This document shows positions 3,013 to 50,114 of a stretch of DNA of 64,000 bases, piece after piece (position 1 is the stretch's first letter; the number at the start of each line of letters is the position of its first letter). The translations under genes were made by a program, and so were the position numbers. Source of the stretch: an archaeon (GTDB taxonomy: Archaea > Aenigmatarchaeota > Aenigmatarchaeia > PWEA01 > JAGHBM01); assembly GCA_020355185.1 (NCBI GenBank), contig CP070662.1:350357-414356 (forward strand), read 5' to 3'. Under the pieces are notes generated by a model. The model was not told the origin of the DNA. It worked only from the letters and a program-made list of their open reading frames with translations, and ran no database searches.

Positions 3013-3402
3013 CTACCTTATTTTTATTTCCTTGCCTTTAAGACTTTCTTTCTCCAATTTTTCATACTCATCCGGGGCCAGTAAAACCCGGAAAAAGTCG
3101 TAATCTATCTTGTCCTCCCACTCCCTCATATATTTCAAAATTCTTTCCATTTCCTTGAGGGCCACTATGAAAACTGAGCTGTCAACCTTTATGTGCGGAA
3201 CCTCGTTCAGCAGACCCTCCCTGTGATACCTGTACTCGGATTCCTCTTTCCTTATAATCTGCGTCCACCCATAAAGGCCACGGAAGAACTTGTTCCTCTC
3301 GTAATTTGACTCAAACTTATCCGAGTGGGTATCAAAACTGATCAAGACGGCCACCTTGCCGTCTTTACCTTCCTTTATTTTTATTTTCACCGCACACACC
3401 AA
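3013..3402 (-). CDS. Hypothetical protein (129 aa)
   Basis: Clean ORF 8 nt downstream of cdc48 on the same strand, with codon usage like its neighbours. No motif I can name with confidence (weak Cas2/VapD-like beta-alpha-beta feel, not claimed). Confidence 0.5.
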
Positions 3403-3592
3403 TCAGGCCCACACACCGGGAGGGCTTCAACAAACTATTTAGTGTTTATTTAAACTAAAAAGTATATAAAGATATCGGTCTCCGGGTAGTGGTGCGTTGA
3501 CGTTGGATAAGTTGTTTTTTCTTCCGAGCGGTGCAAATTGATTTAAGATTTAAATACTTTTCGTTACCTAATTTTAGTAACGAGGTGAATAT

Positions 3593-22037: not shown

Positions 22038-22283
22038 GCTGGGGTGGCCGAGCGGTTTAAGGGCACAATTGCACCCATAAACGCGCAAAATGCCCGACCA
22101 GAGGCGCTAGCCTGCTAAGCTAGTGGGGCATGTCCCCGCGAGGGTTCAAAAACAAAACCTTTCTTAGAAAGAAAGTTTTGTATTTTGCGACAAAGTCGCA
22201 ATACTTGGAACTTCAGTTCCAAGATTCAAAGAATTGCAATTCCTTCGGATTTGCCTTTCGTGAGAGTCCCTCCCCCAGCGCCA
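22038..22283 (+). tRNA. tRNA-Ser(GCU), class II, two putative introns, CCA encoded
   Basis: Acceptor GCUGGGG (22038-44) / CCCCAGC (22273-79). D arm GCC-GAGCGGUUUAAG-GGC. Anticodon arm CUAGC-CUGCUAA-GCUAG with anticodon at 22114-16. Long variable arm GGGG-CAUGU-CCCC. T stem GAGGG (22140-44) / CCCUC (22268-72). Interruptions: ~22065-22105 (41 nt, D-stem/pos 26 region; boundary ambiguous because GGC is repeated) and 22151-22266 (116 nt, T loop UUCAAA|U, pos 59/60). Confidence 0.8.
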
Positions 22284-22340: not shown

Positions 22341-22481
22341 GGGCTGGTAGTCTAGTGGTTATAGACCGACACGTTTTCGTGTCTCGATCAAGACGCTGCC
22401 CTTACAAGGCAGAGGTCGGGAGTTCGACAGACTGACGTGCATTTCATGCGCGTCTTTGCGACGTTCTCCCCCGGCCCACCA
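22341..22481 (+). tRNA. tRNA-Val(UAC), two putative introns, CCA encoded
   Basis: Acceptor GGGCUGG / CCGGCCC. D arm GUCU-AGUGGUUAU-AGAC. Anticodon arm CUGCC-CUUACAA-GGCAG with anticodon at 22403-05. Variable AGGUC. T stem GGGAG / CUCCC. Interruptions: ~22367-22394 (28 nt after the D stem; AGAC repeated at both ends) and ~22428-22463 (36 nt in the T loop). Both fold into hairpins. Confidence 0.85.
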
Positions 22482-22483
22482 TC

Positions 22484-23119
22484 TTAAAACTCTCTAATAG
22501 TTAAGAAATTTCGAATTTTGTTAGACTTCCTTTCTAAAATAAGGTTCGGTAAAACATATTTTTTAATAAATTCCGCATTTTTAGAAGAAATATAAAATTC
22601 CAGTTCATACCAAGTTCCATATATTTTTCGGTTACCAATTTTACTAACTCTACTTCTTTTTGTTATTAAAGTTGAGCATTTTAAACGTTCTTTTATGGAA
22701 ATTGACAAATCTTTTGGAAATTTACCACTTGATATACGAATGGTACATTGGGGGTATTTGGGTCTTTTTATCCTCACGTCTCCGTCACCATCTATAATTC
22801 CTGCAAGATAAGAACCAAATAGCTTATCATTCTCACAAAAAATTTTAGGTGGCATTGGAGGGTCTGAAAAATATATTTTATTTTTCTCAAACATTGGAAT
22901 AAGTTTAGTTATTCCTATTTTACAGGACCAAACATCTTTTTTATTTCTCTTGAAAATACTAGATTTACTATTGAAAATCTCTTTGGAGATAGTCTGAAAT
23001 CGTTTAATTAGAATGAAATCTATAGATTCAATTTCAATTAAAAATGAGCTTTTATTTCTTTTCATCCATCCATCTGCTTGGGATAGACCAGTCCAATACG
23101 CCAATTTTTTCAATTTCAT
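22484..23119 (-). CDS. Free-standing double-motif LAGLIDADG homing-endonuclease-like protein (likely mobile)
   Basis: 211 aa. Motifs YWTGLSQADGWM and LAGIIDGDGDV about 105 aa apart. Very AT-rich. The stop codon lies 2 nt from the 3' CCA of tRNA-Val. Confidence 0.8.
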   Translation of the reverse strand: MKLKKLAYWTGLSQADGWMKRNKSSFLIEIESIDFILIKRFQTISKEIFNSKSSIFKRNKKDVWSCKIGITKLIPMFEKNKIYFSDPPMPPKIFCENDKLFGSYLAGIIDGDGDVRIKRPKYPQCTIRISSGKFPKDLSISIKERLKCSTLITKRSRVSKIGNRKIYGTWYELEFYISSKNAEFIKKYVLPNLILERKSNKIRNFLTIREF

Positions 23120-23851: not shown

Positions 23852-23932
23852 TGGTCTAAAGACTGAGCAAAGGATAATTATTTCCGGGTGGCAAAAGCAT
23901 ATTATTTAAAAGTTAACCGGCTAATATTGGTT

Positions 23933-24818
23933 ATGCAAATTGTAGGCAAAACCAACTTGCCTTTACCTGTTTTTAAGAAGGGTAAGGTAAGGGACACGTA
24001 TGAAGTCGATAGCAATCTTCTTATCATAACCACGGACCGCATTTCAGCCTTTGATTACGTTCTTTCCAATCTCATACCATACAAGGGTGTGTGTATAAAC
24101 AATATATCCAATTTCTGGTCCGACTATCTTGGGGACGTGGTTCCGAATCACTTGATTCACACGGATATCGGCGATTTTCCGCAGGAATTGCAAAAATACG
24201 AGATTTTGGGGGGGGAGAAGCGTAATAGCAAGGAAAGCGAAAGTCTTCCCTATAGAGTGCATAGTTCGTGGTTACATCTTTGGTTCGGCATGGAAATCCT
24301 ACAAAAAAGACCAGACCGTATGCGGCATAAAGTTTCCCCCGGGCATGAAAGAGTCGGAAAAGTTTGACGAACCTCTTTTCACCCCATCCACAAAAGCACC
24401 GGAGGGAGAGCATGACGAGAATATTTCCTTTGACAGGATGAAAGGGATAATAGGCCCGGATTACGCTGAAAAGCTCAGGGATCTGACCCTGGAACTTTAC
24501 GAGAAGGCCACAAAATTTGCCGAAAAGAAAGGTATTATAATCGCTGATACCAAGTTCGAGTTCGGAAAAATTGGTGACCAGGTTGTAATGGTTGACGAGG
24601 TTCTGACTCCGGATTCTTCAAGATTCTGGCCCCTCGACAAATACAAACCGGGTCACTCACAGCCAAGCTTCGACAAGCAATACGTAAGGGACTACCTTAC
24701 AGGCAAGGGATGGGACAAGGAGTCCGACCCGCCAGAACTTCCGACATACGTGATTTTGGAAACAACAAACAAGTACAAGGAAGTCCACGAGAGAATTACG
24801 GGAAGGAAACTGGACTGA
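23933..24818 (+). pseudogene. purC: SAICAR synthetase (PurC) split by a 1-nt frameshift in a G8 run
   Basis: Track ORFs 23888..24367 and 24345..24818. N-part: KGKVRDTYEVD..LLIITTDRISAFD. After GGGGGGGG at 24208-24215 the next frame reads RSVIARKAKVFPIECIVRGYIFGSAWKSY...LFTPSTKA...IIIADTKFEFG. Removing one G restores ...YEILGGRSVIARK... Confidence 0.85.
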
Positions 24819-25627: not shown

Positions 25628-26329
25628 ATGACGGAACTCCTTCACATGAAAGACTGCTATCTCCGGGATTTCAGGGCCAAAGTTGTCAGGACCGGAGAAA
25701 ACTTCGTTGTCTTGGACAGGACTGCTTTCTACCCCGAGGGTGGTGGCCAGGAAAGCGATACAGGATATCTGGAATGGAACGGCCAGAAGTCCGTTGTGAC
25801 CAGGGCGGAGAAGAAAGGGGAAATCGTGCACAGGGTTGACAAAGTCCCGCCCCTTGGAACCGAGGTGACGGGACACCTGGACTGGGACCAGCGTTATGCC
25901 AGAATGAGGATGCACACGGCCCAGCACTTGGTCTCTCTGATGACAATGAACCTTTTTGGCGTGACCACGGTAGGGAACCAGATTCACGGAGACAAATCAA
26001 GGATTGATTTCCATCCCGCCGATTTCTCGGAGAAGGACCTGAAGAGGATAGAGGAAGAGTCAAACAGGATTATAGAAAGGGGTCTGGAAGTTAAGATTTA
26101 CGAACTCCCAAGGGAGGAGGCCCTGGAGAAGGTGGACCGGAGGAGGTGCGACCTAAGCAGGCTGCCCGCTTCCGTACAAAAACTGAGAATTGTGGAAATA
26201 GACTCTCTCGATTTTTGCCCCTGCGCTGGAACCCATGTTAAAAACCTTAAAGAGCTGGGAAGGATAAGAATTCTGGAAAAGATTAATAAAGGCAAGGACA
26301 AACAAAGAATAGTATACACATTGGTTTGA
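25628..26329 (+). CDS. alaX: Alanyl-tRNA editing protein AlaX (AlaX-M type)
   Basis: Zinc/editing motifs MHTAQHL and CAGTHV. N-terminal beta-barrel FYPEGGGQ. Confidence 0.9.
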   Translation: MTELLHMKDCYLRDFRAKVVRTGENFVVLDRTAFYPEGGGQESDTGYLEWNGQKSVVTRAEKKGEIVHRVDKVPPLGTEVTGHLDWDQRYARMRMHTAQHLVSLMTMNLFGVTTVGNQIHGDKSRIDFHPADFSEKDLKRIEEESNRIIERGLEVKIYELPREEALEKVDRRRCDLSRLPASVQKLRIVEIDSLDFCPCAGTHVKNLKELGRIRILEKINKGKDKQRIVYTLV

Positions 26330-26351
26330 ATTGAATAAAGCGGGGGTACCC

Positions 26352-26385
26352 AAGAAAGCTTTTTAGAAAAAAGCTTTAGCAAAAA
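26352..26385 (+). repeat. 34-nt direct repeat, copy 1 (inside tRNA-Leu D-loop interruption)
   Basis: AAGAAAGCTTTTTAGAAAAAAGCTTTAGCAAAAA is identical to 26437-26470 and contains its own inverted repeat AAAGCTTTTT/AAAAAGCTTT. Confidence 0.85.
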
Positions 26386-26436
26386 ACTAAAAGGCTTTGG
26401 GAATGGCCAAACCTACGGGCTATAGGGGCAGGACTT

Positions 26437-26470
26437 AAGAAAGCTTTTTAGAAAAAAGCTTTAGCAAAAA
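26437..26470 (+). repeat. 34-nt direct repeat, copy 2 (inside tRNA-Leu anticodon-loop interruption)
   Basis: Identical to 26352-26385. In both copies the first AAG is the last exon triplet (CCCAAG| and CUUAAG|). Confidence 0.85.
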
Positions 26471-26601
26471 CTTAATCTGTGAGAAATCCTGTGAACGTAG
26501 GTTCTTCGTGAGTTCGAACCGGCCGACGCGCACGAGGTGTGCGTCCGTGCGAAGCACGCAAGGCGGAAGACTGCCGAGAAGATCTCATCCCCCGCACCAA
26601 A

Positions 26602-26629
26602 GGCCTTTTCTTTTTTCAAAAAGAAAGGC
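26602..26629 (+). terminator. Hairpin plus T-run downstream of tRNA-Leu
   Basis: GGCCTTTTCTTTTTT CAAAAAGAAAGGC is an imperfect inverted repeat with a pyrimidine/T tract, which is a typical archaeal termination signal. Confidence 0.35.
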
Positions 26630-26714
26630 ACTTGTGGAAAAGAAAAAGAATATAGACAAGTTGTGCGCCCGCACCAAACATGAAAACTGTGTCCGCACCA
26701 CTTTCGGTGAAAAA

Positions 26715-36808: not shown

Positions 36809-39800
36809 TTACCAGGAGGCGTTTGCCATTATAGTTACAGTGCCCGCGTACGACCCCGTATACACTGGCGGGGTGTCCAGCCAGAAGTAAACCGAATGGG
36901 TTATTCCTGAATCGGCAGGCTCAATTATAGCTTCATAAGTATGGTTCATCCTGGCGGAAACACCGTAACCGGCGCATGCCCTGCACCAGCTTATGTTGGA
37001 AACTTCTATGGGCGTGGAAGTCCCCGCCATGTCCGTGCCTTTTATGTAAAGCCCCTGTGCATCATTCGAGTTCTTGTCCAGTCCGATCTGATAAGGATTG
37101 CCCGGCGCCGCTATCCCCTGAATATCCGGGTCTCTGTCTCCCCAGTCAATTTCGTCAGTGGATACATTCAGCACCAGGACCAAACCTATCCTTATCAGAG
37201 AGTTGGTTGTGTCGTTAGACGGGTTATAAAAGATAACATCTATGTTATAGTATTCATCAAGAGAGCCCGTGGAATTAACCTTCCATATAAAAGTGTAATT
37301 TTCGTCTTGGTCCAAGTTACAACTCTGGGGGTTTAGGTCAAATGTGTAAAATGGAACATCTCCCGGTGTTGTTGAAACATCTGTGTTGGGCTCAGTTCCA
37401 CTTGAATTATATCTTACTTTTCCATAAAGAGTCCCGCATCTCGATTCCTTGCATATTACAGTTGCATTTACGGTAAAGTTTTTGTATCGCGGGGTTATTG
37501 TGTTGTCCGGCGGTTCATTTAAAAACACAATCAATTTTCCTTCGGGCAGAGTTATGTTAACAGTTGTATTGTCTTCGTAACTCTCAGAAGCGTTATAATA
37601 CAAGGTGGAATTATCGGTAATGTTACACTTCGGATAGTAAACCCCATCTTCATACCAAGTTGTATCCCAGCTTCCGATTGCATGGCCCGTAGAGTTTGTA
37701 AAGTTGCTACCAAGACTTACACTATGAGTCGAGTTTTCCACATAAAAATTAACCAAATAGTCCTGTATACCCACACTGGTGTTTGAGTTTTCCACCAGAC
37801 AAGTTAAAGGAACAATTTCACCCTGAGTATAATTATCTCCGCTATCCGGCGAAATCCAGTCTACCTTGCTCCATCCCCGGACAAAGATTGTAATGCTATC
37901 CTCTCCGGAATCATAATATTGTTTTGTAACGCTTATCGTTACAAGTTCCGGTCCTACAGAGTGGCCTGACGGAACAATCCAGGTTGTATTTTCGCCAGAA
38001 GCTATATAATCTGTTGTATTTGTCCAGTTGGCCTGGTCCGGCGTGACAGCAATGTCATTTTCATCCTTGGTCGTTGAGTTCAGCCATGTCAAACTCTCAA
38101 CCTGATAAATTGATTCGTTCGCAGGATAACCCATACTTATATTTAATATACCAATGAGAGTAACAGACCCGGAGGCGTCATCGTCTGCGGCAGTGGTGTT
38201 ATAGTATGCGGACGGTTTGTTGTTTATGAGGCACCTCAAAGTTTTTGGTCCCACCGTCTCGGTTTGCGCATCCCAGTTCACTGTGGCGTAACCGGTCGAG
38301 TTCGTGTTATCCGAGTTTATGTAATCCCAGTCATCATCGTAAAAATCAACCTGATAATTTTCTATTCCGTACAAGCCGTCCTTATCAATAACCCTGCACG
38401 TGAGTGGAACCGTACCTCTGTAAGTGCTTCCCGAAGGTCCAGTCCATTCCACTTTACTTCTGCCCCAGACATCAAAAGTTTTGTATCCCAAGGAATCGTT
38501 CCAGTTCGGCGGAACAACTTGGTCGGATGCATTAATTTTCGTCACATGCACACCAACAATCCAAGAAGAGTTTGTATTAATGGTGTGATTAGTCCAGTTA
38601 TCGCCACCGATAGTTTCTGTCGCGTATCCTACTATTTGGGATGACGTGTCGTTAAACATGGTGTAAGAGTTTCCGATAGACTCGTTCCACTGTGCATAAA
38701 TCAGTAAGGCGTCGCCCTTCCAGACAACCGTATCATTTATTCCGTAAGTAATGGCAAAGGGTGGGGTTATGTCTTCCCCGGGCTCTTTGGTGGTTAAAGT
38801 CTCTGTTTTGTTGTTGTTCGAAGAGGCATTATACATGATGGCAGCATAATCGGTGATGTTGCAAACCAGCGTATCGGTTCCGTTACTGTAATCTATGTAT
38901 TTCCAGACAGCCCAGCCACTCGAGTTTGTTTGATTTGCACCCAAAATATTCGTGGAATTGTAGAAGCTGATGTTATAACCGGAAATAGCGCTTCCATTCA
39001 AATCAGTAACCCTACAACTAAACAAAGTCGAACTCCCTTCATAAATTATGTTCGGGTTCAGGTCACTGTCACTGACCTCGGACCAACCCCAGACTTCCGT
39101 TGTGTTTATCTGGGTCATGTTTTCGTTGCTCGATGAGTCGTTTGCATAAATTCTCCATCCGAGTATACCCGGGGTCATGCTCATTGGAATGGTTAATTCA
39201 AATTCGGCCCAATTTTCTATAACAATGGCATCTGCCAGCGAACTGTTTTGCCAAGTTCCTGTTTCGTTTGTTGACAGCCAGGCATAATCTAATGCCTCGT
39301 TATCATCCCAATAGGACTTATAGAGAATAGCGTCTCCCTTATGTACTACAGAAACGTTCTGGCTTACTTGCGAGTATTTGGGAGGTTCCGTCTCTATCGT
39401 TCTTAATGTTTTTATTTCGTAGTAGTCTGATGTGACGTTGTAATAAAGCGTGGAATTTTCAGTAATGTTACATGTAATGTTTTCATACCCCAAACTGTTA
39501 TCAACAAAGGTAAAACGTGCCCAGCCTGTCTGGTTTGTATTATTTGTGCCCAACTGATTTGTCGAGTTGTAGAAAACAACATTGTAACCACCAACGCCGC
39601 TTGTATTGTCAGAGACCACCCTACAATACACTGTTAAAGGATTTCCCTGGACAACAGTTGACGGGTCAAGATAGCTGCTGGGGATGCTTGACCAGCCCCA
39701 AACCTCAAAATTAAGGTGGTATAAGGTATTATTCCAGTTACCATTCAAGTCACTTGAATAAATTTTTAGGGAGTGAACCCCCAGCAACCAAGATACATTC

Positions 39801-42800
39801 GTATAAAGAGTGCGATTAGTCCAGTTACCCGTGTATGGGGGCGAAATGGTGTGGTTAAACAAGCTGAAGGCAGTATCGTTGTATTCGGTTTTTGAGTCAT
39901 TGATTTCTTCATTCCATCTTGCGTATGCGGCCAGAGAGTCCCCTCTGTTTACAATATAATCTGTCAAACCGTATATCTCATTGTAAAGCTTGGGTGGTAA
40001 TCCTTCCGTAGGTATTAAGTTATACGTGGAATAGTCTTCTTCAGTCCAAAAAGTATCGTTTATTAAAAAGTGAACGAGTTTTTTTCCAGAACCCGTGGTG
40101 ATATTGAATATGTAATAGAAAGTTACATTATTGTTAACCTGCACCAACATATTTCCTTGGGAGGTATTCCATTCAATTTTTCCGGGGGACCAGTTACCTC
40201 CAGTATAGTTTAACGTCGAGTTTTCGTACCATATATCATGCGTATGGTTTATATTCCAACTTGAGTCCAGATTTTCATGGAATATTACATCAGAAGATGT
40301 TATTGTCCAGTTTGACTCGCTGGTGTCATTAACCCAGGCAACTATTTCTGCCCTATAAACATTACCTGTGTATAAGTCAAATGTAGTATTCAAACCAGAG
40401 CCAACGGGATCTGATGTATTAGTATGTTTATCAGAGGCATCAGTTACATCAAATATCCTTATTTCTTGAATTTGAACCAAAGATAACGGCTCTGTTATAG
40501 AGAATTGATAGTAACCAAGTATATCCGAGTCGTCGTCATTTTTTAAAATGTTTCCGCTCGGGTCTGCCAGATAACCCAAAACCCTGTAAGTTCCTGCAGG
40601 CTCCAAGTCAGTATTCCATGCGCTCGGATTCCATAAAGTGTCTAGTGCCAGAGAAGCGCCTGCAGAAATGTTGTGGGATTCGTTGTTTAAAACGATTCCG
40701 CCGGAGACATCTTGCCAGCCGCCCCCGACATATCTCTGGACTTTCATAGTCAGATATCCTTTAATATCCTTATTTCCGGTGTTCTTAATTGCGGACCTGA
40801 TATAAGCAATTTTTAATTCCGGTTGGTTTGTTCCCTGGCTTCCATCAATTTCAAAGTAGGCGTTTTCACCGCTTTCATTGATTAAATATGCCACCAAATC
40901 TTTATCGGCCATGTATGATTCGTTAACACTCACCAGTACATCTATAGTTTTATTTCCGGCTGTGGATGCGCTGAAATTCCCTATGGGATTTGATTCGGAA
41001 CATTCACTCGGTTGGCCGTCATCATAAATCGTGTTTACTGGAGTGGAGGAGTTATAGGTCCCGTTTGTATGATAAACCAAGCCTGTAGCCGATGCAGAGG
41101 CTGTAACTGAAACAGTTAAATTCGCAGATAGAATTTTTGCTCCGTCCGGAATTTCACTCAGGTTGAATTTCAGATAATACCGCTGCTTTACTGTAGTGTA
41201 AGTAATATTCAATGCGGCATAATCTATAGCAAGTAAGCTGTCGTCGCCCAGATAAGTTATCTCATATCTGGCTTTAATTTCATTGGAAGAATCGTTAACA
41301 AAGTCCGACATTTTTCCGTATGCGTCCCAGCTGCCATTTACTTCATAACCCCAGTCACTTGTGCTCAAATCCCCTATATCAACCCAAGACCCGGATGAAT
41401 AATTGTAAACTTCAACGTCTTGGAAACCCACCGGCACACCCTCCGGGGAGTCCCCGTCACAGGATGGTCCTCCTCCATTGGAGCCATCATGACAGTATAC
41501 CAGTTCGAAGTTCAGTCTGGTTATGTGATTTTCATCTATCCCCAGAGAAGTTATGTTAAAGGTCAATTCACCGTAAGCGTTGGGGCTTCCGCCCTGTGAA
41601 CCGTACCACCAGTAGGAGCCGTCATCTGATTGCGTGTCTGTATAGTCCCCGCCGCTGGCATCATAAATTCCTGTTATTTGGTCATCATCCGCCAAATCCA
41701 ACGAGGTGTCGTTCTTGTATCCGATTCCAGCCGTGCCCGGATCATCTATTCTGGTTCCGTTGAACATGGCAACCACATCATAACTAGCGTTTTTCGTTGT
41801 TTCTTGGTCAATGTAACTTGTTAAATTAACATACTCCAAGGGACCATAAGAATCATCAATTGTTTTGACATTCAGAGTGGCATTGGAGCTTATGTTGAAA
41901 TAGTAAACAGAACTTTGGTTTGTTTTTCCAGCAGTGTCCTGCGCCCAAACATAATAGGAGTATTGCCCGTTTTTCCAAGTACCTGAAAAGTTGTATTCAT
42001 ATACGTCTTGCGTGTAGTTGGTCATGTCATACGCAGTATAACTTTCTTCAGGAGGTTTTACATATACCCTTACGATATTTACACCATCCCAGTCAGTTAC
42101 ATTTGCCGAGATGGTTACGTTTTGTCCATAACCCTGCGAATCGGGTGAATTTACAACATCCTTTATGAAAGGTTTGTCGTGAACAGTTATGTTTGTCGTG
42201 TTCCAAGATGGATTCGTATAAATAGAACTTTTACCGTCATAAGAAACATTAATTTGATGGTTTCCCAAAGTTTCACTTGATGAAAGCTGATAATCTACTG
42301 TTGCCAGGCCGCCGGAATCAGTAAGGTCCCAACCAATAAAGTAACCAGTGGTTGTATCGTTAAATGTTATGTTTTGATTTGGTATTTCGGTACCGTTATC
42401 ATATTTCAAATAGGCACTTACTCTAACGGTTTCCCCCCCAACCGGATCGGAATTGTTAACTGAAGGGTTTATAGTTGTATTTGCGTAGACAGTTATTGTA
42501 ACAATATCCCAGTCTGTATAACCTTCCTGGCACGAAGTATCAAGTCTAACTTCTTGCGGACCCAGCTGGGAACTTATTACCAAACCCGCTGTTATGTTGT
42601 TCCAAAAAATGTTTCCAGGGGCAAGAGTTTCATTATTTTCGTTTAAATTACCAGAGGAGTTGGTCCAACCGCTTGGTAACGTCCAGTTAAGCCATAAATC
42701 ATTTACAGTTATCACTATTGTATTATTCACATAACCTCTTAAGTCGCCGGATCCGCCCCTGGTTACGATAGTGGGATATTCGCTAATTTCAGTAGACAGT

Positions 42801-45800
42801 CCGGGTATTCTTAACATTAATATTTTATCCTCCTGCTCCCCCCAGCTATGGTATTCCCCTCCCGGATTTGTATAATTAATAGTTGCGTTGATATGGTAAT
42901 CTCCGGCCGGTGTTGAGTTAGTTGATATATTAAAGGTGGCATTTTTCCAGCCGCCTCCGGTTATAGTACCAAGATTACAGTAGTTCTGGTTTGTTTGCCC
43001 TGCCAGAGTACAGTTACATGTAAAACCAAGGCCCTGAGGACAGTTTACCGTGACATTAACACTTGTTAAATTTTTAGACCAGGGATTCGCTACAGTAAAG
43101 TTATACAGAGACGACTTGTTCTGGTATATTTTTTCTGGGGTCATATTTGAAGAAAAGCCATCGGGCACATGGTGAATTGTAAAGTTAATAGAACTGTTTT
43201 GTGTCGTATTACCGCTGTCAGAACCCATAGTTACATTCCAGAAGAAATTATAATTTCCTGAGGTTGCATCCAAAGGAATAGGATAACCATACGTTTGGTT
43301 ATCAAATTTTTTCTCGCAGGCTTCGTCTGCATCGAGGTTCCCGCAATATTGGGTTTCATCGGGTCCCCAATCAACCATACTACTCAAATGGTCAAGAACA
43401 TTCAAGGTTATGCTTGCATTGACTGAAGTAGTGTTTCTGTTGGTTACGGTAACATTTATCCAGGCAATATTATCTCCTGTTTCATATTCTTCCACATCGA
43501 AGTTGTATTCATTTTCATGTGTCAAATTAGTTAACTCCATGTAAGCAGATATTATTGTGAAATTATAGGTTGCGACAAGGTCTGAACCAGAATAATCCTT
43601 TAAGGCATTGCCATTTAAATCAACTAAAGCAGCATAAATCCTGTAAGTTCCCGCAGGCTCAAGGGTAGTGTTCCAGCCCCCTCCCGCTTCCCACAGCGTG
43701 TCTAAATATTTCTTTTGGCCGGCATCAGTGCTTTGTATTCCATCTGACTGGTCCATTACTGGGAATCCGGTGTTTTCCCAACCAGAGCCGGTCCAGTGCT
43801 GGACTCTCATAATTATGTAGTACTTCATATCCACAGAACCCGTATTAACAACCTTTGATATTCTGTCGTAAGATTCATTTGAACCCAAGGTAACTGATAC
43901 AGGGTTTTCAACCTTCTTCCATTCGTTTCTTACAGGCACGTAATTACTACCATTCAGGGTTACGTAGTATGCTTCATAGGTATAAATCCCGGATATGGTG
44001 CTATCCTGCATGTTGAAAGGCACCCATGCCATGCCCCAAAGTCCGCCAGTTCCACCCAAATTGGTTATAGCCCAGTTGGTGTTGTTTGGGGTGTAGCTTG
44101 AATTTAACAAGAAATACCCGAAAGTTTGACCATAGCTTCCATCTAGGTGCATGACACCCCAGGTCTCATTCCAGTCTGTGTGTTGTTGTGCAAGTTCGGT
44201 GCCAAGCAGAGGTTCTGTAACTGCTCCGCTGGGGGTAATGTAACTAAAGTTGTCTTGAACCGGGTTTATATCCCACGATGGCATTCTTTCATGCGGCCAG
44301 TCGGGCCAGGAAGTTTCTGTAAAAGATGTGGAGAAATTGGAGGTATAATTTGCCTCAATCCTTGAAATCTCGTAATCCGGTGTGTAATAAATCCTCCACA
44401 CATAGGTGTACTCTGACCCGCTTATTACACCAGGATAGGCAGGATTTGCAACGCCGGGCGCCTTCATCGTTATTTTATGCATCAAAGGTCCAACGACGTC
44501 GAAAACAACAGATGAGGCGTTACCCGCATCGGAATAGTTTGTTGCATCAGAATGCTGTGTTATAAAGCCGCAGTCCGCCTCACCCGAGAAAGTGCACCCC
44601 CCAAAGACATCTCCAGCGTTACTCCAGAAGTGGAACATGCCAGGGGACAAATCCCAGTCATCATAGGCTATGATAGATTGCGCCGAATACAAGTCAAAAT
44701 AAACCAAGGGCTGATTGCTTCCCGAATAAGTTCCATTTATCTGAATCGTATCACCGGTTCCATAAGAAGTGCCAATTGAAAATCCGGTTCCCCTGTCAAC
44801 CACTGACGGGTCGTTTAAACCGGTATAGCTTGGCTTGCTTGCCTGTGAATTGTTGTAGTAAATGTAATACGTGGAGGTTGAACCTTCGCTTACATTAGAT
44901 AAAAAGACCACATTGGCCCCGACACAATAACCAGATGAATATTTTTCATCATAAACCTGCGAAGAGATTTCATCAATTTTTCCGGAAGTTACCCTTATCT
45001 CTTTTGTACAGTTGACAACTTTACCCTGGGCAAATGTAACGTAAGTGTCTATTGGCCAGAAAGTTCTGTCACCAACTCCGGGTTCTGTTACGTTCACCTG
45101 TTTTCTTGATTCCCATGAGGAATTCCACCATTCATCCGATTTGTAGTAAACTGTTATGTTTACATATTCGTTGGGACCGTAAGAATCGTTTTCAGTGGAA
45201 ACATCAATAGTGGCGTTTACAGTAACATTAAAAGTGTTAACATCGGAAAAGTACCCGGCACCGCTACTATCATTGGCCCAGATTCTGTAGCTATATCCAC
45301 TCCACTGCCAGGTGTCAGAAAAATTGTATTGCCATGTATCTGCAGAAATATTAACCATGGTGAAATTATACGAGGCGCTATCAGGATACGTAATTTCTAC
45401 AAGAGCGGTATCAACATCGCCTCCCGTTATGTCACCGGATATGGTCACATTATAACCATAACCCACCGGATCAGGAGTGTCTGTTATATCAGAGAAAACA
45501 AAAAGTGTTAGTTCAAAGTAATCGACGTTTTCTATATAACTGCTATCATCGTTCTGCAAGACATTCCCTTCATCATCTGTAAGAGCAGCGTAAACCCTGT
45601 ACCATCCCGTCTCTTGACCATATGTACTCCATGGTTCAGCGTTCCAAATAGAACCCACATCCAGATATTCGCCAGCAGAGATGTTTCTTAAAGTTGACGT
45701 ATTGGTGTCATCGATTATTATTTCAACGACATTCCAAGAACCCGAATTGTTTGTTTGAATTTCCATCAACAAATAACCGGAAATATCTGTCGGGCCATTA

Positions 45801-48800
45801 TTGAATAAAGAGGATCCGTTATATGCTGTAACCCAGATATCAGTCCAGTTTATTTCATCGATATTGGAGGAGTCGTTATAATCAAAATTCACCCCTCTTA
45901 TTCTCAAGTCCCTGTTTCCAGCAGTTTCCCAAGCACTCAAGACAGAAGAGTTGGTTGTGGAAAGACTAAAATTACCGGTTGAGTTTACACTGAAGTTTCC
46001 TATTTCTATCCATCCGCCACCATCTGTTGTTGCCATTTCCAGTTGTAAGTCGGGGTTGCCATTTCCGTTATTAGAAGAACCCGAGTTGTTGTAAAAAGAA
46101 ACATTAACAGTCACCGTTAATTTTGTCAAATCCTCCATATTTCCTGACAAAACATCATTGTAAGTCGTGTAGGATGTGTTTGCTTCTCTATCCACATCCT
46201 CTAAGGCAGAGTAAGATATGTTTATATCATCAAACCCCCTGCCATCATTTGTGCACGGAAAATTATCATGCTGCATGAATTTTACCGCGAAAGATCCGTT
46301 AACCTCGGAACAAAAGTCCGGGTCAGCTGAAATGTTATGTTCATGGTATCCCCAACTTCCCTCGTCTGTTGTGAGCGCTTCAAGTCTGTACCAATAACTT
46401 CCGTTACAGGTGAAGAACACACCGTCACCGCAGGCACTGTTGCCTGAACAGCCTGACTGGTAGTCTCCGTAATGGTCTCCTAATTGATGGGATTCTTCTC
46501 CTGTTTCTATATGATAAAAGCTAAGAATTATGTTACTTGCTCCTGAGAAATCATAAGTAGTCTTAATTACATTAGTCTCGTACTGGTTACTAGAAGTGAC
46601 ATCCATCCAAAGATAATAAAGTCCTGAATTTGGCGAAGTACAGGCAGATAACTGGACATCTGTTGAGTTATAAGTTCCCGGATTTCCTATCACAGTCCAA
46701 TTGCCCGTAATACCACCGCTTTCAAAACCATCAAAAAATTCTGCAGGAAAAGTTCCCGGTGTTTGAGCCTTTTTCTGTATTTCCCCAGACTCCCGGTCAT
46801 CAGAAGTTAGGTCTTTGCCGAGTGTCAAGTTTACGTATTGGTTCAATCCGTACGAATCTTCAATTGCAAATACCGTTATCAATGCGCTGCCATTTACATA
46901 GAAATATGGGTCGTATTCTTGGATGTTCCCGTAAGTATCGTTAGCCCATATCGAATAATAATAGCTTCCGGTTTGCCAGGGTGTATAGTTATATTCATAG
47001 ATATCTTGCGTATAGTTGGTCATTTCTCGCCATTCCAAGGTGTCGTCGGGTAGCGTTATATTCACAAAAACCCTATCCACGTTTGAGTTATCAGTTACAT
47101 TTGCCGAGATGGTAACGATTCTTCCGAGCCCGCTTGTTTCAGGACTCGCATCAACATCAGCTATAACCGGTTTGGTTGCATCCGCGCTCATTATCATTAA
47201 ATGACTTTCGCTCGAGTTCGTATAATTCTGATTCCCAGCAAAATAACCTGTTACGTTGAACATATCATCAGGACTAAAACTACTTGTGTTTGTAAAGTTT
47301 GTCAGGGGAGTAAATCCTGGGGAGTTGGAAACGTTTTCTGTTATCCCAGTAAAGTTTGTCCAGATTTCAACATCAACACCTGAAATATTCAAGGCTGCTG
47401 TTATGTTGGCGATTTGTCCCACTTCATAAACCACGTCTCCGTCCGTTCCGTTCAAGAGCAAATTAATTTCCGTGGGAGCTTTCTGGACGGTGAAAGACTG
47501 TATCGCCATGGTATCGTTCCAGTCATCTAACGTATCATTTGCCCAATAGTTCCATCCGACCGTTTTTCCTCCAGGAAGTTCTGAACTCGGGATACTGCAG
47601 TAATAAATGTTGCTTTGATTATCGCAAATTGGGTCAGTTGTCGTGTAGTTAGTCCATGTCCCGGTGTAGTTGCTCCTGAAAATAACCGTTCCCAAGCCGA
47701 CAGCATCGTTCCACGTGGAATTGCACTGCACGTCATTCCCGTAAACCGGGTTTCCCGCGGGGTTCTGTTGCACATCTGAATAGTTAGGCGGCGTGGTATC
47801 AACGCTAAAGTATCTGGTATCGGAATTGTTCATGTTACCTTTTGTGTCATTGCAGTAGAAAACCACGTAATTTGAACCGTCTGATATGCCTGAAAGATTG
47901 AGGTAAAAGTGCATGGTTGAATCATTGCTCATCGTCTGGTTTGCACCATCGTTCAGGGAAACGCCACACCAGTCACCGGTTTCGTCCAGAGTAACATTTG
48001 ACCATACCCAGTTCTGCTGATAAACTTGGTTCAGGGGGGACTCTATGGTGATTACCGGAGGATTATCATATGTTACATTCATGTAAGGCCTCAGGGAAGT
48101 GTCAACACCATATTCCTTTGAATACAAACGGTCTTCAGCGGAACTTGCAGTTTCCGGTGTCCTAATAACTATGGAAACGTTATTGTCTCCGTTTTCATAT
48201 TCCGACCTTACCGTATTGGTAACGTTCCAGCAGACCCAACCAACCGCGGTAGTTGCCTGCGTATCTTCTGATGTGAGATTACACTCAGCAGAATTATCGA
48301 ACCCAGGATCACATGGCTGATCGTTCCAAATTATTCCGCCTTCAGTCCATGTGTGGTTGTAAACATGATGCGCAGAAGCCTGGGCCGTGGCACCATTTTG
48401 ATACAAGTAAAGACAAAGCAGTGATTCGCTAATACCAACCTTGTTTGGTATCGAACTAATATTGAACTTGATGTAAGTTCTGTAGGCCCTGTCAGTTCTG
48501 TCCCTTATTCTGACATTGCTGTCATCACCATAATTCGTGGTTGCAGAGTTGCTTCTTACATGAGTGTCATCAAGGTTCTCCGAATCAGGAGCCTGCAGCT
48601 GCACTGTCGGGTCCAGAACGATATCAGAACCGGTGAAGTTGCTTATCCTTATATCTGCCGTATTTTCGTCTATCTGCTTGGTTTCAACCAAGATACCGGA
48701 GGTTGTGCAGTGGTCTTCCTCGTCGCACGTTAGGTTGTACAGGTCGGAGAAATCTATTTCCAATTCTCCGATTAGCAGGGTATCGTTATCCAGAACAGTT

Positions 48801-49666
48801 ATGCCCGACCCGGAGCTTATTGTAAGTCCAACGTATTCCAGACCCTGAACATTTGTAAACAAGTGAGACCACTTGTAATAACCGGATCCCTCTTTTATTT
48901 CAGTTTTAAAATTCATTGAGCTCGGAATCCCCTGTTCAAACCCTCCCATAACCACATAAGGTTCCAGGTTTGCGGTTTTGCCGTTCCATTCCAGTTCCAG
49001 ATTTTGTGAGGAGGCGTTGTAGGCAAAACCGACCAGTTCATTGAAGGGTCTGTAAATTCCTTCAGAATCTTCCATATTCATTTTTCCGGAGTAAAGACTC
49101 CTCGTGCAGCCATCACCGTTACAATTCTCTGTCCAGGTAGAACCGTACGTTGTTTTTGAAAAACCTGTTTCAGTTTTCGATTTAACAGTTACAGTTGGTT
49201 CAATCCAAGAAGTGGTGGTGGAGACAGAGGAAACCGTTTTTTGCATGTCCCCAATTTCAAATTCTTTTGTAACGCATTCTTTACCGGACCTGAGTATGAC
49301 CGTATAAAAACCATTTTCAAATTTAGGCAGGAATAACTTGTAAGAGCCAGACGAATCTGTTGATGTGGTCCTTTCAAATATTTCATTCTGAGAAGAATCC
49401 AAAACTGTCAGAGAGAAAGGCGTGTTTGAAGGTCCTGATATATCAAAACTTATTGATTCCTGATAAATTTCTGCATCAACAAAGAAAACTTCTGAAGATT
49501 GCGTCAAAGAACTGATGACAGGAAATAAAACAAAGGCCAAAACCATTACAAAGGCCGTGTTATAGGGATTTCTGGCGAATACGGAACCCTTCTTCAAACC
49601 GTTTTTTATTTTCAACGCAATCATATCAATCACAGTATTTTCTTGCATCCTCATCCGTTGTTCCAA
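36809..49666 (-). CDS. Giant secreted surface protein (4285 aa), multi-domain adhesin-like
   Basis: Uninterrupted 12.9-kb ORF. N-terminal signal anchor (AFVMVLAFVLFPVISSL). CarboxypepD_reg-like module. DNRLRE/CBM96-like modules (...NVRIRDRTDRAYRTYIKFNISSIP...LCLYLY; ...QRYYLKFNLSEIPDGAKILSANLTV). Many repeated Ig-like modules. Very rich in N, T, S, Y, W and in NxS/T sequons. The TTG at 49666 overlaps the upstream ORF, and the ATG at 49624 is an alternative start. Confidence 0.85.
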   Translation of the reverse strand: MEQRMRMQENTVIDMIALKIKNGLKKGSVFARNPYNTAFVMVLAFVLFPVISSLTQSSEVFFVDAEIYQESISFDISGPSNTPFSLTVLDSSQNEIFERTTSTDSSGSYKLFLPKFENGFYTVILRSGKECVTKEFEIGDMQKTVSSVSTTTSWIEPTVTVKSKTETGFSKTTYGSTWTENCNGDGCTRSLYSGKMNMEDSEGIYRPFNELVGFAYNASSQNLELEWNGKTANLEPYVVMGGFEQGIPSSMNFKTEIKEGSGYYKWSHLFTNVQGLEYVGLTISSGSGITVLDNDTLLIGELEIDFSDLYNLTCDEEDHCTTSGILVETKQIDENTADIRISNFTGSDIVLDPTVQLQAPDSENLDDTHVRSNSATTNYGDDSNVRIRDRTDRAYRTYIKFNISSIPNKVGISESLLCLYLYQNGATAQASAHHVYNHTWTEGGIIWNDQPCDPGFDNSAECNLTSEDTQATTAVGWVCWNVTNTVRSEYENGDNNVSIVIRTPETASSAEDRLYSKEYGVDTSLRPYMNVTYDNPPVITIESPLNQVYQQNWVWSNVTLDETGDWCGVSLNDGANQTMSNDSTMHFYLNLSGISDGSNYVVFYCNDTKGNMNNSDTRYFSVDTTPPNYSDVQQNPAGNPVYGNDVQCNSTWNDAVGLGTVIFRSNYTGTWTNYTTTDPICDNQSNIYYCSIPSSELPGGKTVGWNYWANDTLDDWNDTMAIQSFTVQKAPTEINLLLNGTDGDVVYEVGQIANITAALNISGVDVEIWTNFTGITENVSNSPGFTPLTNFTNTSSFSPDDMFNVTGYFAGNQNYTNSSESHLMIMSADATKPVIADVDASPETSGLGRIVTISANVTDNSNVDRVFVNITLPDDTLEWREMTNYTQDIYEYNYTPWQTGSYYYSIWANDTYGNIQEYDPYFYVNGSALITVFAIEDSYGLNQYVNLTLGKDLTSDDRESGEIQKKAQTPGTFPAEFFDGFESGGITGNWTVIGNPGTYNSTDVQLSACTSPNSGLYYLWMDVTSSNQYETNVIKTTYDFSGASNIILSFYHIETGEESHQLGDHYGDYQSGCSGNSACGDGVFFTCNGSYWYRLEALTTDEGSWGYHEHNISADPDFCSEVNGSFAVKFMQHDNFPCTNDGRGFDDINISYSALEDVDREANTSYTTYNDVLSGNMEDLTKLTVTVNVSFYNNSGSSNNGNGNPDLQLEMATTDGGGWIEIGNFSVNSTGNFSLSTTNSSVLSAWETAGNRDLRIRGVNFDYNDSSNIDEINWTDIWVTAYNGSSLFNNGPTDISGYLLMEIQTNNSGSWNVVEIIIDDTNTSTLRNISAGEYLDVGSIWNAEPWSTYGQETGWYRVYAALTDDEGNVLQNDDSSYIENVDYFELTLFVFSDITDTPDPVGYGYNVTISGDITGGDVDTALVEITYPDSASYNFTMVNISADTWQYNFSDTWQWSGYSYRIWANDSSGAGYFSDVNTFNVTVNATIDVSTENDSYGPNEYVNITVYYKSDEWWNSSWESRKQVNVTEPGVGDRTFWPIDTYVTFAQGKVVNCTKEIRVTSGKIDEISSQVYDEKYSSGYCVGANVVFLSNVSEGSTSTYYIYYNNSQASKPSYTGLNDPSVVDRGTGFSIGTSYGTGDTIQINGTYSGSNQPLVYFDLYSAQSIIAYDDWDLSPGMFHFWSNAGDVFGGCTFSGEADCGFITQHSDATNYSDAGNASSVVFDVVGPLMHKITMKAPGVANPAYPGVISGSEYTYVWRIYYTPDYEISRIEANYTSNFSTSFTETSWPDWPHERMPSWDINPVQDNFSYITPSGAVTEPLLGTELAQQHTDWNETWGVMHLDGSYGQTFGYFLLNSSYTPNNTNWAITNLGGTGGLWGMAWVPFNMQDSTISGIYTYEAYYVTLNGSNYVPVRNEWKKVENPVSVTLGSNESYDRISKVVNTGSVDMKYYIIMRVQHWTGSGWENTGFPVMDQSDGIQSTDAGQKKYLDTLWEAGGGWNTTLEPAGTYRIYAALVDLNGNALKDYSGSDLVATYNFTIISAYMELTNLTHENEYNFDVEEYETGDNIAWINVTVTNRNTTSVNASITLNVLDHLSSMVDWGPDETQYCGNLDADEACEKKFDNQTYGYPIPLDATSGNYNFFWNVTMGSDSGNTTQNSSINFTIHHVPDGFSSNMTPEKIYQNKSSLYNFTVANPWSKNLTSVNVTVNCPQGLGFTCNCTLAGQTNQNYCNLGTITGGGWKNATFNISTNSTPAGDYHINATINYTNPGGEYHSWGEQEDKILMLRIPGLSTEISEYPTIVTRGGSGDLRGYVNNTIVITVNDLWLNWTLPSGWTNSSGNLNENNETLAPGNIFWNNITAGLVISSQLGPQEVRLDTSCQEGYTDWDIVTITVYANTTINPSVNNSDPVGGETVRVSAYLKYDNGTEIPNQNITFNDTTTGYFIGWDLTDSGGLATVDYQLSSSETLGNHQINVSYDGKSSIYTNPSWNTTNITVHDKPFIKDVVNSPDSQGYGQNVTISANVTDWDGVNIVRVYVKPPEESYTAYDMTNYTQDVYEYNFSGTWKNGQYSYYVWAQDTAGKTNQSSVYYFNISSNATLNVKTIDDSYGPLEYVNLTSYIDQETTKNASYDVVAMFNGTRIDDPGTAGIGYKNDTSLDLADDDQITGIYDASGGDYTDTQSDDGSYWWYGSQGGSPNAYGELTFNITSLGIDENHITRLNFELVYCHDGSNGGGPSCDGDSPEGVPVGFQDVEVYNYSSGSWVDIGDLSTSDWGYEVNGSWDAYGKMSDFVNDSSNEIKARYEITYLGDDSLLAIDYAALNITYTTVKQRYYLKFNLSEIPDGAKILSANLTVSVTASASATGLVYHTNGTYNSSTPVNTIYDDGQPSECSESNPIGNFSASTAGNKTIDVLVSVNESYMADKDLVAYLINESGENAYFEIDGSQGTNQPELKIAYIRSAIKNTGNKDIKGYLTMKVQRYVGGGWQDVSGGIVLNNESHNISAGASLALDTLWNPSAWNTDLEPAGTYRVLGYLADPSGNILKNDDDSDILGYYQFSITEPLSLVQIQEIRIFDVTDASDKHTNTSDPVGSGLNTTFDLYTGNVYRAEIVAWVNDTSESNWTITSSDVIFHENLDSSWNINHTHDIWYENSTLNYTGGNWSPGKIEWNTSQGNMLVQVNNNVTFYYIFNITTGSGKKLVHFLINDTFWTEEDYSTYNLIPTEGLPPKLYNEIYGLTDYIVNRGDSLAAYARWNEEINDSKTEYNDTAFSLFNHTISPPYTGNWTNRTLYTNVSWLLGVHSLKIYSSDLNGNWNNTLYHLNFEVWGWSSIPSSYLDPSTVVQGNPLTVYCRVVSDNTSGVGGYNVVFYNSTNQLGTNNTNQTGWARFTFVDNSLGYENITCNITENSTLYYNVTSDYYEIKTLRTIETEPPKYSQVSQNVSVVHKGDAILYKSYWDDNEALDYAWLSTNETGTWQNSSLADAIVIENWAEFELTIPMSMTPGILGWRIYANDSSSNENMTQINTTEVWGWSEVSDSDLNPNIIYEGSSTLFSCRVTDLNGSAISGYNISFYNSTNILGANQTNSSGWAVWKYIDYSNGTDTLVCNITDYAAIMYNASSNNNKTETLTTKEPGEDITPPFAITYGINDTVVWKGDALLIYAQWNESIGNSYTMFNDTSSQIVGYATETIGGDNWTNHTINTNSSWIVGVHVTKINASDQVVPPNWNDSLGYKTFDVWGRSKVEWTGPSGSTYRGTVPLTCRVIDKDGLYGIENYQVDFYDDDWDYINSDNTNSTGYATVNWDAQTETVGPKTLRCLINNKPSAYYNTTAADDDASGSVTLIGILNISMGYPANESIYQVESLTWLNSTTKDENDIAVTPDQANWTNTTDYIASGENTTWIVPSGHSVGPELVTISVTKQYYDSGEDSITIFVRGWSKVDWISPDSGDNYTQGEIVPLTCLVENSNTSVGIQDYLVNFYVENSTHSVSLGSNFTNSTGHAIGSWDTTWYEDGVYYPKCNITDNSTLYYNASESYEDNTTVNITLPEGKLIVFLNEPPDNTITPRYKNFTVNATVICKESRCGTLYGKVRYNSSGTEPNTDVSTTPGDVPFYTFDLNPQSCNLDQDENYTFIWKVNSTGSLDEYYNIDVIFYNPSNDTTNSLIRIGLVLVLNVSTDEIDWGDRDPDIQGIAAPGNPYQIGLDKNSNDAQGLYIKGTDMAGTSTPIEVSNISWCRACAGYGVSARMNHTYEAIIEPADSGITHSVYFWLDTPPVYTGSYAGTVTIMANASW
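37550..40010 (-). repeat. Four tandem ~200-aa two-domain units inside the 4285-aa protein
   Basis: Each unit ends its first domain with V(W/R)G(W/R)S (VWGWSSIPSS, VWGWSEVSDS, VWGRSKVEWT, VRGWSKVDWI). An Ig-like domain follows with ...C(R/L)V.D/E...GY.V.FY...N.TG.A... and CNIT(E/D)..., spaced about 600 nt apart. Confidence 0.7.
48030..49160 (-). repeat. Conserved N-terminal module of the 4285-aa protein (paralogous to 53860-54985)
   Basis: About 375 aa collinear with the 1771-aa protein. DNA includes identical runs, for example AGGTTCCAGGTTTGCGGTTTTGCCGTTCCATTCCAGTTCCAGATTTT and GAGGAGGCGTTGTAGGCAAAACCGACCAGTTCATTGAAGGGTCTGTAAATTCCTTC in both copies. Confidence 0.85.
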
Positions 49667-50114
49667 TACATACGAAATATTCCAGGCTCGGTGAATACTC
49701 TCCCCTTTGCGTGCTTACGGCGAGCTGCCACTTTCCTACCTTCACCGCCCTTACCGAAACACCATCGTTCCCATTTTTGTATTCAAGTTCCCCTTCCAGA
49801 TGTTCCAATCCCTTTGGCAGTTCCAGTCTAACGCCTTCTATTTCCGGATTAATTTTCCATTCGATAACAGACTCTTCACCAATGGACATGATAAACCCAT
49901 TTCCCGTTTTTTCAACATGCCTTATATCAAATACAGCGTCTACCTCCGGTTCCATCAAAATAATTCCCAAAGCCGCCCCCATAATTCCAACTGCAATGAT
50001 TATTATCATGATTTGGTATGGTCGGGACGATTTAGGTTGGGTATTAGATCTGGGGGGAACCAGAAACGACTCTACAAACTCCCCGACCACATGTGTATAA
50101 ACCATTTTTACCAT
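49626..50114 (-). CDS. Single-pass membrane protein (162 aa) wedged between the two giant genes
   Basis: TM helix YQIMIIIIAVGIMGAALGIILM followed by a ~110-aa beta-rich ectodomain. Overlaps the 1771-aa stop by 7 nt and the annotated 4285-aa start by 41 nt. Confidence 0.6.
   Translation of the reverse strand: MVKMVYTHVVGEFVESFLVPPRSNTQPKSSRPYQIMIIIIAVGIMGAALGIILMEPEVDAVFDIRHVEKTGNGFIMSIGEESVIEWKINPEIEGVRLELPKGLEHLEGELEYKNGNDGVSVRAVKVGKWQLAVSTQRGEYSPSLEYFVCIGTTDEDARKYCD

Follow-up and report, generated by a model that had tools for sequence, protein, structure and literature searches.

Can a transfer RNA gene that is interrupted in four places still yield a mature tRNA, and how did two of its interruptions come to carry the same sequence? 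These questions are raised by a locus at positions 26340 to 26599 (plus strand) of a 64,000-nucleotide (nt) stretch of archaeal DNA from contig CP070662.1 (the whole stretch is called the window here), which an earlier note, made from the sequence alone, had read as a tRNA-Leu(UAA) gene with four interruptions. We regard it as very probable that this is a functional tRNA-Leu(UAA) gene whose precursor would lose four bulge-helix-bulge (BHB) introns by splicing, and that a 31-nt identity between its first and third introns stems from DNA-level exchange between introns that already existed. ARAGORN made no tRNA call on the unspliced 64-kb window, Rfam gave no tRNA-related match on it either at gathering thresholds or at E ≤ 10, and ARAGORN run with intron options and lowered thresholds returned 150 nonsense calls and no usable one. 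Once the insertions were removed, a cloverleaf of a single isotype was recovered: ARAGORN called tRNA-Leu(taa) on the 90-nt sequence left by cutting out the four blocks proposed earlier (CCA included), and the call stayed the same on the 88-nt product of the corrected splicing (85 nt plus encoded CCA). The mature length, put at 87 nt plus CCA before, is shortened here through a shift of the intron 1 boundary. As the earlier reading had it, the acceptor stem of the spliced tRNA is perfect over 7 bp, the variable arm is long with GAAC/GUUC pairing, the T loop reads UUCGAAU, and CCA is encoded. The marks of a class II tRNA-Leu are all there, namely, the variable arm GAAC-GUAG-GUUC, A73, the anticodon UAA, and a D loop AAGUGGCCAAA with G18 and G19.

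We modeled each junction on a BHB template in which exon positions −6 to −3 pair with intron positions n−5 to n−2 to form the central helix (H), flanked by two 3-nt bulges that are cut after their second nucleotide; the inner helix (h′) starts from intron nucleotide 2, and the outer helix (h) starts from exon position +2. This geometry could be drawn at all four junctions, at one of them with a 3/4 helix (Table 1), so the four-interruption reading now has a splice motif at each junction as well as a product called Leu(taa). Introns 3 and 4 keep the coordinates first assigned to them, and intron 4 has a homologous intron at the same site in L004, one of the related loci (given here as L numbers). 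Intron 2, previously placed at 26412 to 26424, yields the same product but is best written one nucleotide upstream. Intron 3 lacks a contiguous h′ and has a local 10-bp hairpin in its place; in intron 4, the T stem serves as h (5 bp), and a 4-bp h′ (CGGC:GCCG) and two internal hairpins are found. When each intron was shuffled and registers were slid along it, a 4/4 helix arose by chance with P = 0.004 (intron 1), 0.022 (intron 2), 0.038 (intron 3), and 0.079 (intron 4). All four BHBs, together with the acceptor, anticodon, variable-arm, and T stems, fit into one constrained fold (−84.9 kcal/mol), and the unconstrained minimum free energy (MFE) fold already holds the H and h′ helices of intron 1 and the hairpin of intron 3.

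Orthologues were collected by two routes. The first started from alaX, an alanyl-tRNA editing gene (Pfam tRNA-synt_2c and tRNA_SAD) whose stop codon lies 10 nt before the tRNA locus; contigs encoding the closest AlaX proteins carried a syntenic tRNA-Leu(UAA) in L001/L174, L002/L003, L004/L005, L176, and L177. The closest of these proteins (79% identity) are labelled Candidatus Aenigmarchaeota, which places the host, as judged from this gene, as a small-genome archaeon of the DPANN superphylum (Diapherotrites, Parvarchaeota, Aenigmarchaeota, Nanoarchaeota, and Nanohaloarchaeota) close to Aenigmatarchaeota. The second route, a DNA pattern scan in which each GTDB species was represented by one genome, added 48 loci, all of them in DPANN, Thermoplasmata, or Bathyarchaeia metagenome-assembled genomes (MAGs). 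Hand-curated mature sequences were threaded exactly through 11 distinct orthologues, and the best BHB register was chosen for each intron. The mature exons were identical to those of the window at 79 to 87 of 88 nt, and introns, two to four per gene, were present or absent at exact sites among near-identical orthologues. In total, the 11 genes in Table 1 (window included) hold 35 introns at eight sites, with H at 4/4 in 27 and 3/4 in 8. Four further Aenigmatarchaeota-like lineages (L004, L014, L043, and L020) have four-intron Leu(UAA) genes. Introns at 21/22 were also found in L004 (47 nt, h′ of 6 bp), L036 (12 nt), and L043 (48 nt).

The register of intron 1 was chosen with the help of these relatives. 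With the boundaries proposed earlier, 26355 to 26401, only 2 of 4 central pairs form, while an intron ending at 26403 gives 4/4 and an 11-bp h′. The D loops of L002 and L174, which contain no intron, read CCCRAG-UGGCCAAA-GGG, and in L011 a BHB arises only in the register that leaves AAG|UGG; intron 1 therefore most likely ends at 26403, which would give the mature D loop named above. An alternative register for intron 1, spliced at 16/17 and yielding the earlier product, also has H at 4/4 in the window; it was rejected because it does not work in L011 and disagrees with the intron-free D loops of L002 and L174.

The splice helices also covary. The h′ of intron 1 is AAGCUUUUU:AAAAGGCUU in the window and GAGCUUU:AAAGCUC in L011. 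The homologous fourth introns of the window and L004 (48/64 identical) differ by an A57-U pair that restores H to 4/4 in L004 where the window has G.A, by a C-G to U-A covariation in h′, and by three compensatory pairs in hairpin 1. Since the exons are conserved across orthologues, the introns vary at exact sites, and the BHB helices covary, the locus is almost certainly a functional gene rather than a pseudogene or a chance pattern. Decay into a tRNA pseudogene, or misassembly with many insertions, would fit with a locus that standard tRNA finders miss and that lies near a purC gene that looks frameshifted, and a 31-nt repeat could in principle mislead an assembler. However, we found no broken stems, drifting exons, or missing splice motifs: the acceptor stem is perfect and the cloverleaf intact after splicing, the matching exons come from independent assemblies, BHB geometry is conserved with covariation, and the independently assembled L011 has the same intron 1/intron 3 architecture. 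We consider such decay or misassembly scarcely credible. Instead, the comparison points to a functional gene in a clade that gains and loses BHB introns rapidly, with eight sites used in one tRNA and at most four occupied at once. In L174 (approximately positions 1923 to 2075), a 17-nt intron at 31/32 (H GGCA:UGCC, 4/4) was observed 6 nt upstream of the 37/38 intron, and one of the two probably must leave before the motif of the other can form.

Table 1. Positions in the window of the tRNA-Leu(UAA) gene parts and other features, followed by the intron sites of each orthologous tRNA-Leu(UAA) gene.
Feature	Position	Strand	Description
Exon 1	26340..26354	+	Acceptor 5′ strand, U8 A9, D-stem 5′ strand, A13 A14 G15 (GCGGGGGTACCCAAG)
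Intron 1 (15/16, D loop)	26355..26403	+	49 nt; H CCCA:UGGG, 4/4; bulges AG|A, AA|U; h′ 11 bp; no outer helix
Exon 2	26404..26410	+	D loop UGGCCAA
Intron 2 (21/22, D loop)	26411..26423	+	13 nt; H GGCC:GGCU, 4/4; bulges AA|A, AU|A; 6-nt loop replaces h′
Exon 3	26424..26439	+	A22, D-stem 3′ strand, G26, anticodon-stem 5′ strand, loop CUUAAG (anticodon UAA)
Intron 3 (canonical 37/38)	26440..26485	+	46 nt; H CUUA:UGAG, 4/4; bulges AG|A, AA|A; h = anticodon stem, 6 bp
Exon 4	26486..26518	+	A38, anticodon-stem 3′ strand, variable arm GAAC-GUAG-GUUC, T-stem 5′ strand, UUCGAA
Intron 4 (59/60, T loop)	26519..26582	+	64 nt, G+C-rich; H UUCG:AGAA, 3/4 (one G.A); bulges AA|C, GA|U
Exon 5	26583..26599	+	U60, T-stem 3′ strand, acceptor 3′ strand, A73, CCA (26597-26599)
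Repeat copy 1	26355..26385	+	31 nt; 10-bp hairpin at 26355-26377
Repeat copy 2	26440..26470	+	31 nt; identical to copy 1
T-rich run	26606..26616	+	TTTTCTTTTTT; directly 3′ of CCA, within inverted repeat (arms 26600-26615 / 26618-26633)
Partial repeat TGCGCCCGCACCAAA	26664..26678	+	Downstream of tRNA-Leu
Partial repeat TGTGTCCGCACCA	26688..26700	+	Downstream of tRNA-Leu
tRNA-Ser(GCU)	22038..22283	+	Non-canonical introns 22060-22101 and 22151-22266, both H 4/4; CCA encoded
tRNA-Val(UAC)	22341..22481	+	Insertions ~22367-22394 and 22429-22464, non-canonical sites; CCA encoded
LAGLIDADG homing-endonuclease-like open reading frame	22484..23119	-	211 aa (Pfam LAGLIDADG_3, E = 3.6e-7)
purC, first open reading frame	23888..24367	+	159 aa
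purC, second open reading frame	24345..24818	+	157 aa
alaX	25628..26329		Alanyl-tRNA editing gene
Giant open reading frame 1	36809..49666	-	4285 aa
Giant open reading frame 2	50108..55423	-	1771 aa
Window gene			4 introns: 15/16, 21/22, 37/38, 59/60
L004 (=L005, L041)			4 introns: 15/16, 21/22, 37/38, 59/60
L014			4 introns: 15/16, 37/38, 53/54, 59/60
L043			4 introns: 21/22, 37/38, 53/54, 59/60
L020			4 introns: 15/16, 37/38, variable arm, 59/60
L036			3 introns: 21/22, 37/38, variable arm
L176			3 introns: 15/16, 37/38, 53/54
L177			3 introns: 15/16, 37/38, T loop
L011			2 introns: 15/16, 37/38
L002			2 introns: 37/38, 59/60
L174			2 introns: 31/32, 37/38

Introns 1 and 3 of the window begin with the same sequence. 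The earlier note had described an identical 34-nt string that follows an exonic AAG; the repeat is real, but 31 nt of it are intronic, and 34 nt are reached only when the AAG is counted (26352-26385 = 26437-26470). The exact 31-nt repeat has two copies in the window and none in 100 shuffles, and it holds a perfect 10-bp hairpin with a 3-nt loop, AAAGCTTTTT-aga-AAAAAGCTTT. One explanation is that the 31-mer is a small palindromic element inserted independently into both introns and unrelated to intron biology. The 21-nt core, AAGCTTTTTAGAAAAAAGCTT, occurs in at least 120 metagenome contigs, with none in a tRNA context among the matches listed, and is therefore a common low-complexity A/T hairpin. 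However, the identity sets in right at each of the two splice sites and runs past the palindrome (TAGCAAAAA), the same hairpin forms the h′ helix of intron 1 in L004, and the 64-kb window contains no further copy of the 31-mer; independent insertion is thus very unlikely.

The likeness of the two introns was also scored by local alignment with shuffle controls. Window introns 1 and 3 resembled each other (z = 18), and each resembled its counterpart in L011 (z = 13 for intron 1 and 17 for intron 3), while both resembled the short, 28-nt intron 1 of L004 (z of about 14). In L011, introns 1 and 3 showed the same resemblance to each other in diverged form (z = 8.6), suggesting that it dates from before the two lineages separated, with copies that have since diverged in L011 and are identical in the window. 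Similar introns at different positions of a tRNA were thus found in the window, in L011, and also in L014, where the introns at 15/16 and 53/54 of one gene are alike (z = 6.7).

The earlier note took the repeat as evidence that one intron had been copied to a second site of the same gene. In its full form, this would mean that intron 1 transposed whole into an intron-free 37/38 site, or the reverse, and so made a new intron, with the identity as the footprint of transposition. The 31/31 identity begins exactly at both 5′ splice sites, each time after an exonic AAG; in Thermoproteales, transposition is recognised in the literature by like introns at different sites (PMC4090602), and the L014 pair fits the same pattern. 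On the other hand, every relative examined, including L002, L004, and L174, which were found by synteny, already has a 37/38 intron ending in UGAGAA. Window introns 1 and 3 are unlike each other in their 3′ 15 to 20 nt, where each intron pairs with the exon it adjoins (UGGG for intron 1, UGAG for intron 3). Furthermore, intron 3 retains a remnant of an older interior: the 37/38 introns of many relatives share ACTTAAGT-(G/T)TTGA-hairpin-(A)TGA..., of which the window keeps ACTTAAT and the intron ending CTGTGAGAA, and L011 keeps ACTTCAA and CTCTGAGAA. Therefore, while the similarity behind the claim of mobility is real, the target site appears to have been occupied already and the resemblance is older than the L011 split, and whole-intron transposition seems unlikely to us. 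Because L011 shows the resemblance in diverged form and all relatives examined have a 37/38 intron, we find it simplest to suppose that both introns were already there, that a hairpin module passed from one to the other and was homogenised afterward, and that no new intron was made. One sign of direction is that the hairpin is ancestral to site 15/16 (L004); the AAAAAACTAA stretch of intron 1, however, may be left over from the ACTTAA element of intron 3, which would suggest copying in the opposite direction.

Taken together, these comparisons suggest the following course of events. A precursor of approximately 260 nt would be transcribed with introns at 15/16, 21/22, 37/38, and 59/60, and each junction would present a 4-bp exon-intron helix between two 3-nt bulges (strict or relaxed BHB). 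The archaeal tRNA-splicing endonuclease would cut after the second nucleotide of each bulge, and an RtcB-type ligase would join the five exons into the 85-nt tRNA with its encoded CCA. At the DNA level, the hairpin module would have passed between existing introns by gene conversion or partial copying, in a first exchange before the L011 split, and the copies would have been homogenised or copied again later in the window lineage.

Several observations weigh against this account. All four motifs are relaxed rather than strict: introns 1 and 2 have no outer exon-exon helix, intron 3 has no contiguous inner helix, and the central helix of intron 4 carries a G.A mismatch. Since three of the four lack a flanking helix, an endonuclease of broad specificity would be needed, and no Pfam match to the splicing endonuclease (PF01974) was found in the 10 mid-size window open reading frames (ORFs) screened. 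Helices of at least 3/4 arose in shuffles of intron 4 with P = 0.39; its own 3/4 helix is therefore not significant alone. The unconstrained MFE is −103.3 kcal/mol, 18 kcal/mol below the BHB-competent fold. With regard to the exchange, the pattern scan demanded a 37/38 intron and thus cannot show that this intron is universal, although the synteny route made no such demand, and the direction and mechanism of copying are read from only the two genomes that have both copies.

A wider intron family is possible, given the likeness within L014 and a weak resemblance to the T-loop intron of the window's tRNA-Ser(GCU) gene described below (z = 5.0 to 5.5). More tentatively, and with the odds in our view against it, an active family of A/T-rich hairpin BHB introns (5′-AAAGCYTTT...) may be copying itself, whole or in part, within and between tRNA genes of Aenigmatarchaeota-like DPANN archaea; the 31/31 identity would then be very recent and the mosaic a natural time series. 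If so, the family could reveal how archaeal tRNA introns are gained, whether by DNA-level conversion or by reverse splicing.

Two introns showed features beyond splicing. By eye, the 37/38 introns of L004, L014, L015, L017, L019 to L021, L027, L028, L036, L037, L043 to L045, L176, and L177 share an interior in which a palindrome, ACUUAAGU, complementary to anticodon loop positions A31 to G37, is followed by (G/U)UUGA, a short hairpin or loop, and (G)AUGA(U)GA. This interior resembles the box C′/D′ K-loop half of a C/D guide RNA, and its putative target by the N+5 rule would be 2′-O-methylation of the wobble U34, analogous to the guide in the pre-tRNA-Trp intron. The window and L011 have lost this module. 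Our literature search found nothing specific on a box C/D guide in a tRNA-Leu intron. The conservation of intron 4 goes far past the requirements of BHB formation: the hairpin CGUGCG(A/U)AGCACG and the sequence AAGGCGGAAG are both invariant across the window, L004 (approximately positions 3402 to 3465 of that locus), and the T-loop intron of L177, and a second hairpin shows compensatory changes among relatives. Given this conservation, excised intron 4 may have a function of its own.

Other tRNA genes in the window are interrupted as well. A scan for acceptor stems and T arms, followed by reading of the sequence, identified a tRNA-Ser(GCU) and a tRNA-Val(UAC) gene (Table 1). The spliced Ser 88-mer was called Ser(gct), and the spliced Val 77-mer was called Val(tac). 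In tRNA-Val, the second insertion has H at 3/4 with the T stem as h; the first gave a poor BHB, at best 3/4 and none convincing, and a relaxed brute-force BHB enumeration on this gene gave too many solutions to single one out. In total, the window holds three tRNA genes with eight interruptions, all with an encoded CCA and all missed by ARAGORN and Rfam. On the strand opposite tRNA-Val, a free-standing LAGLIDADG homing-endonuclease-like ORF terminates 3 nt away from the 3′ end of that gene, with no rRNA or obvious host intron seen.

The tRNA-Leu gene joins the known class of archaeal tRNA genes disrupted by BHB introns. In Thermoproteales (Pyrobaculum and Thermofilum; Sugahara 2008, cited through PMC4033280 and PMC8450103), tRNA genes have been described in which protein-spliced BHB or relaxed-BHB introns sit in the D, variable, and T arms and in the anticodon loop, at positions both canonical and non-canonical; as here, a gene can have several introns, and gain is rapid and lineage-specific. 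Those accounts give at most three introns per gene, compared with four here, where the host is a DPANN archaeon and CCA is encoded. For the endonuclease, the literature predicts an α4 form with an L3 loop in a DPANN host, as opposed to the crenarchaeal (αβ)2 form with its crenarchaeal loop, and L3-loop DPANN enzymes are associated with more tRNA gene disruption (Kaneta 2018, PMC5829648). Other DPANN archaea likewise have non-canonical and multiple introns (ARMAN ε2 EndA substrates and Nanoarchaeum split tRNAs, PMC5829648).

The earlier note had held that three introns per archaeal tRNA gene is the published maximum and four exceptional. Reviews do give three (PMC4033280, PMC8450103); however, Asgard tRNAs with four introns are listed in Supplementary Data 4 of Valentin-Alvarado 2024 (PMC11291895), and four relatives here have as many. 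Four per gene is consequently no longer a record. The Asgard lineages concerned, Atabeyarchaeia and Freyarchaeia, have intron-rich tRNA genes and belong to a different superphylum; their four-intron cases are table rows only, and that paper describes neither intron paralogy within a gene nor an orthologue-by-orthologue mosaic. In the summaries of Fujishima 2010 in PMC4090602 and PMC4033280, introns transposed in Thermoproteales are, as here, near-identical and at different canonical and non-canonical positions. Those cases are between different tRNA genes, whereas the copies here lie 85 nt apart in one gene, share only their 5′ two-thirds, and are at sites that both seem to have been occupied before, which is more like conversion than insertion. 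Within the papers that could be searched, no description of tRNA introns in Aenigmatarchaeota or of four-intron tRNAs in DPANN archaea was found.

What the present locus adds is the DPANN setting, to which four-intron tRNA genes are now extended, the eight-site mosaic among near-identical orthologues, and two introns of one gene with an identical module. The intron 1/intron 3 pair and the diverged pair in the sister lineage form a compact test case for the spread of BHB introns, be it through conversion or through transposition. Missing tRNAs in DPANN genomes have been taken to imply undetected disrupted genes (PMC5829648), an expectation that the three tool-missed genes of the window fit. Given these three, the "missing tRNAs" of DPANN MAGs are probably annotation failures rather than biology, and inferences of completeness and auxotrophy from such MAGs should allow for tRNA genes that tools miss.

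The surroundings of the locus yielded further observations. The T-rich run 3′ of the CCA is likely the archaeal transcription stop of the tRNA-Leu gene. Three copies of CCGCACCA, where approximately one is expected in the whole window, lie within 110 nt (26592 to 26700, plus strand), one at the tRNA-Leu 3′ end and two, partial, downstream (Table 1); L176 has a similar GCGCCCGCACCA copy approximately 190 nt downstream of its own tRNA-Leu. These repeats may be old att-like duplications left by integration at the tRNA 3′ end. The genes directly downstream of tRNA-Leu (Ldh_2, nitroreductase, and His_Phos_1) vary among relatives. Upstream of alaX, purC (SAICAR synthase) is seemingly split into two overlapping ORFs, while in L174 and L177 it is a single ORF of 302 to 306 aa in the same place; a frameshift, a sequencing error, or pseudogene status could each account for the split. 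Finally, two giant ORFs lie back to back on the minus strand, of a kind typical of DPANN surface or adhesion proteins.

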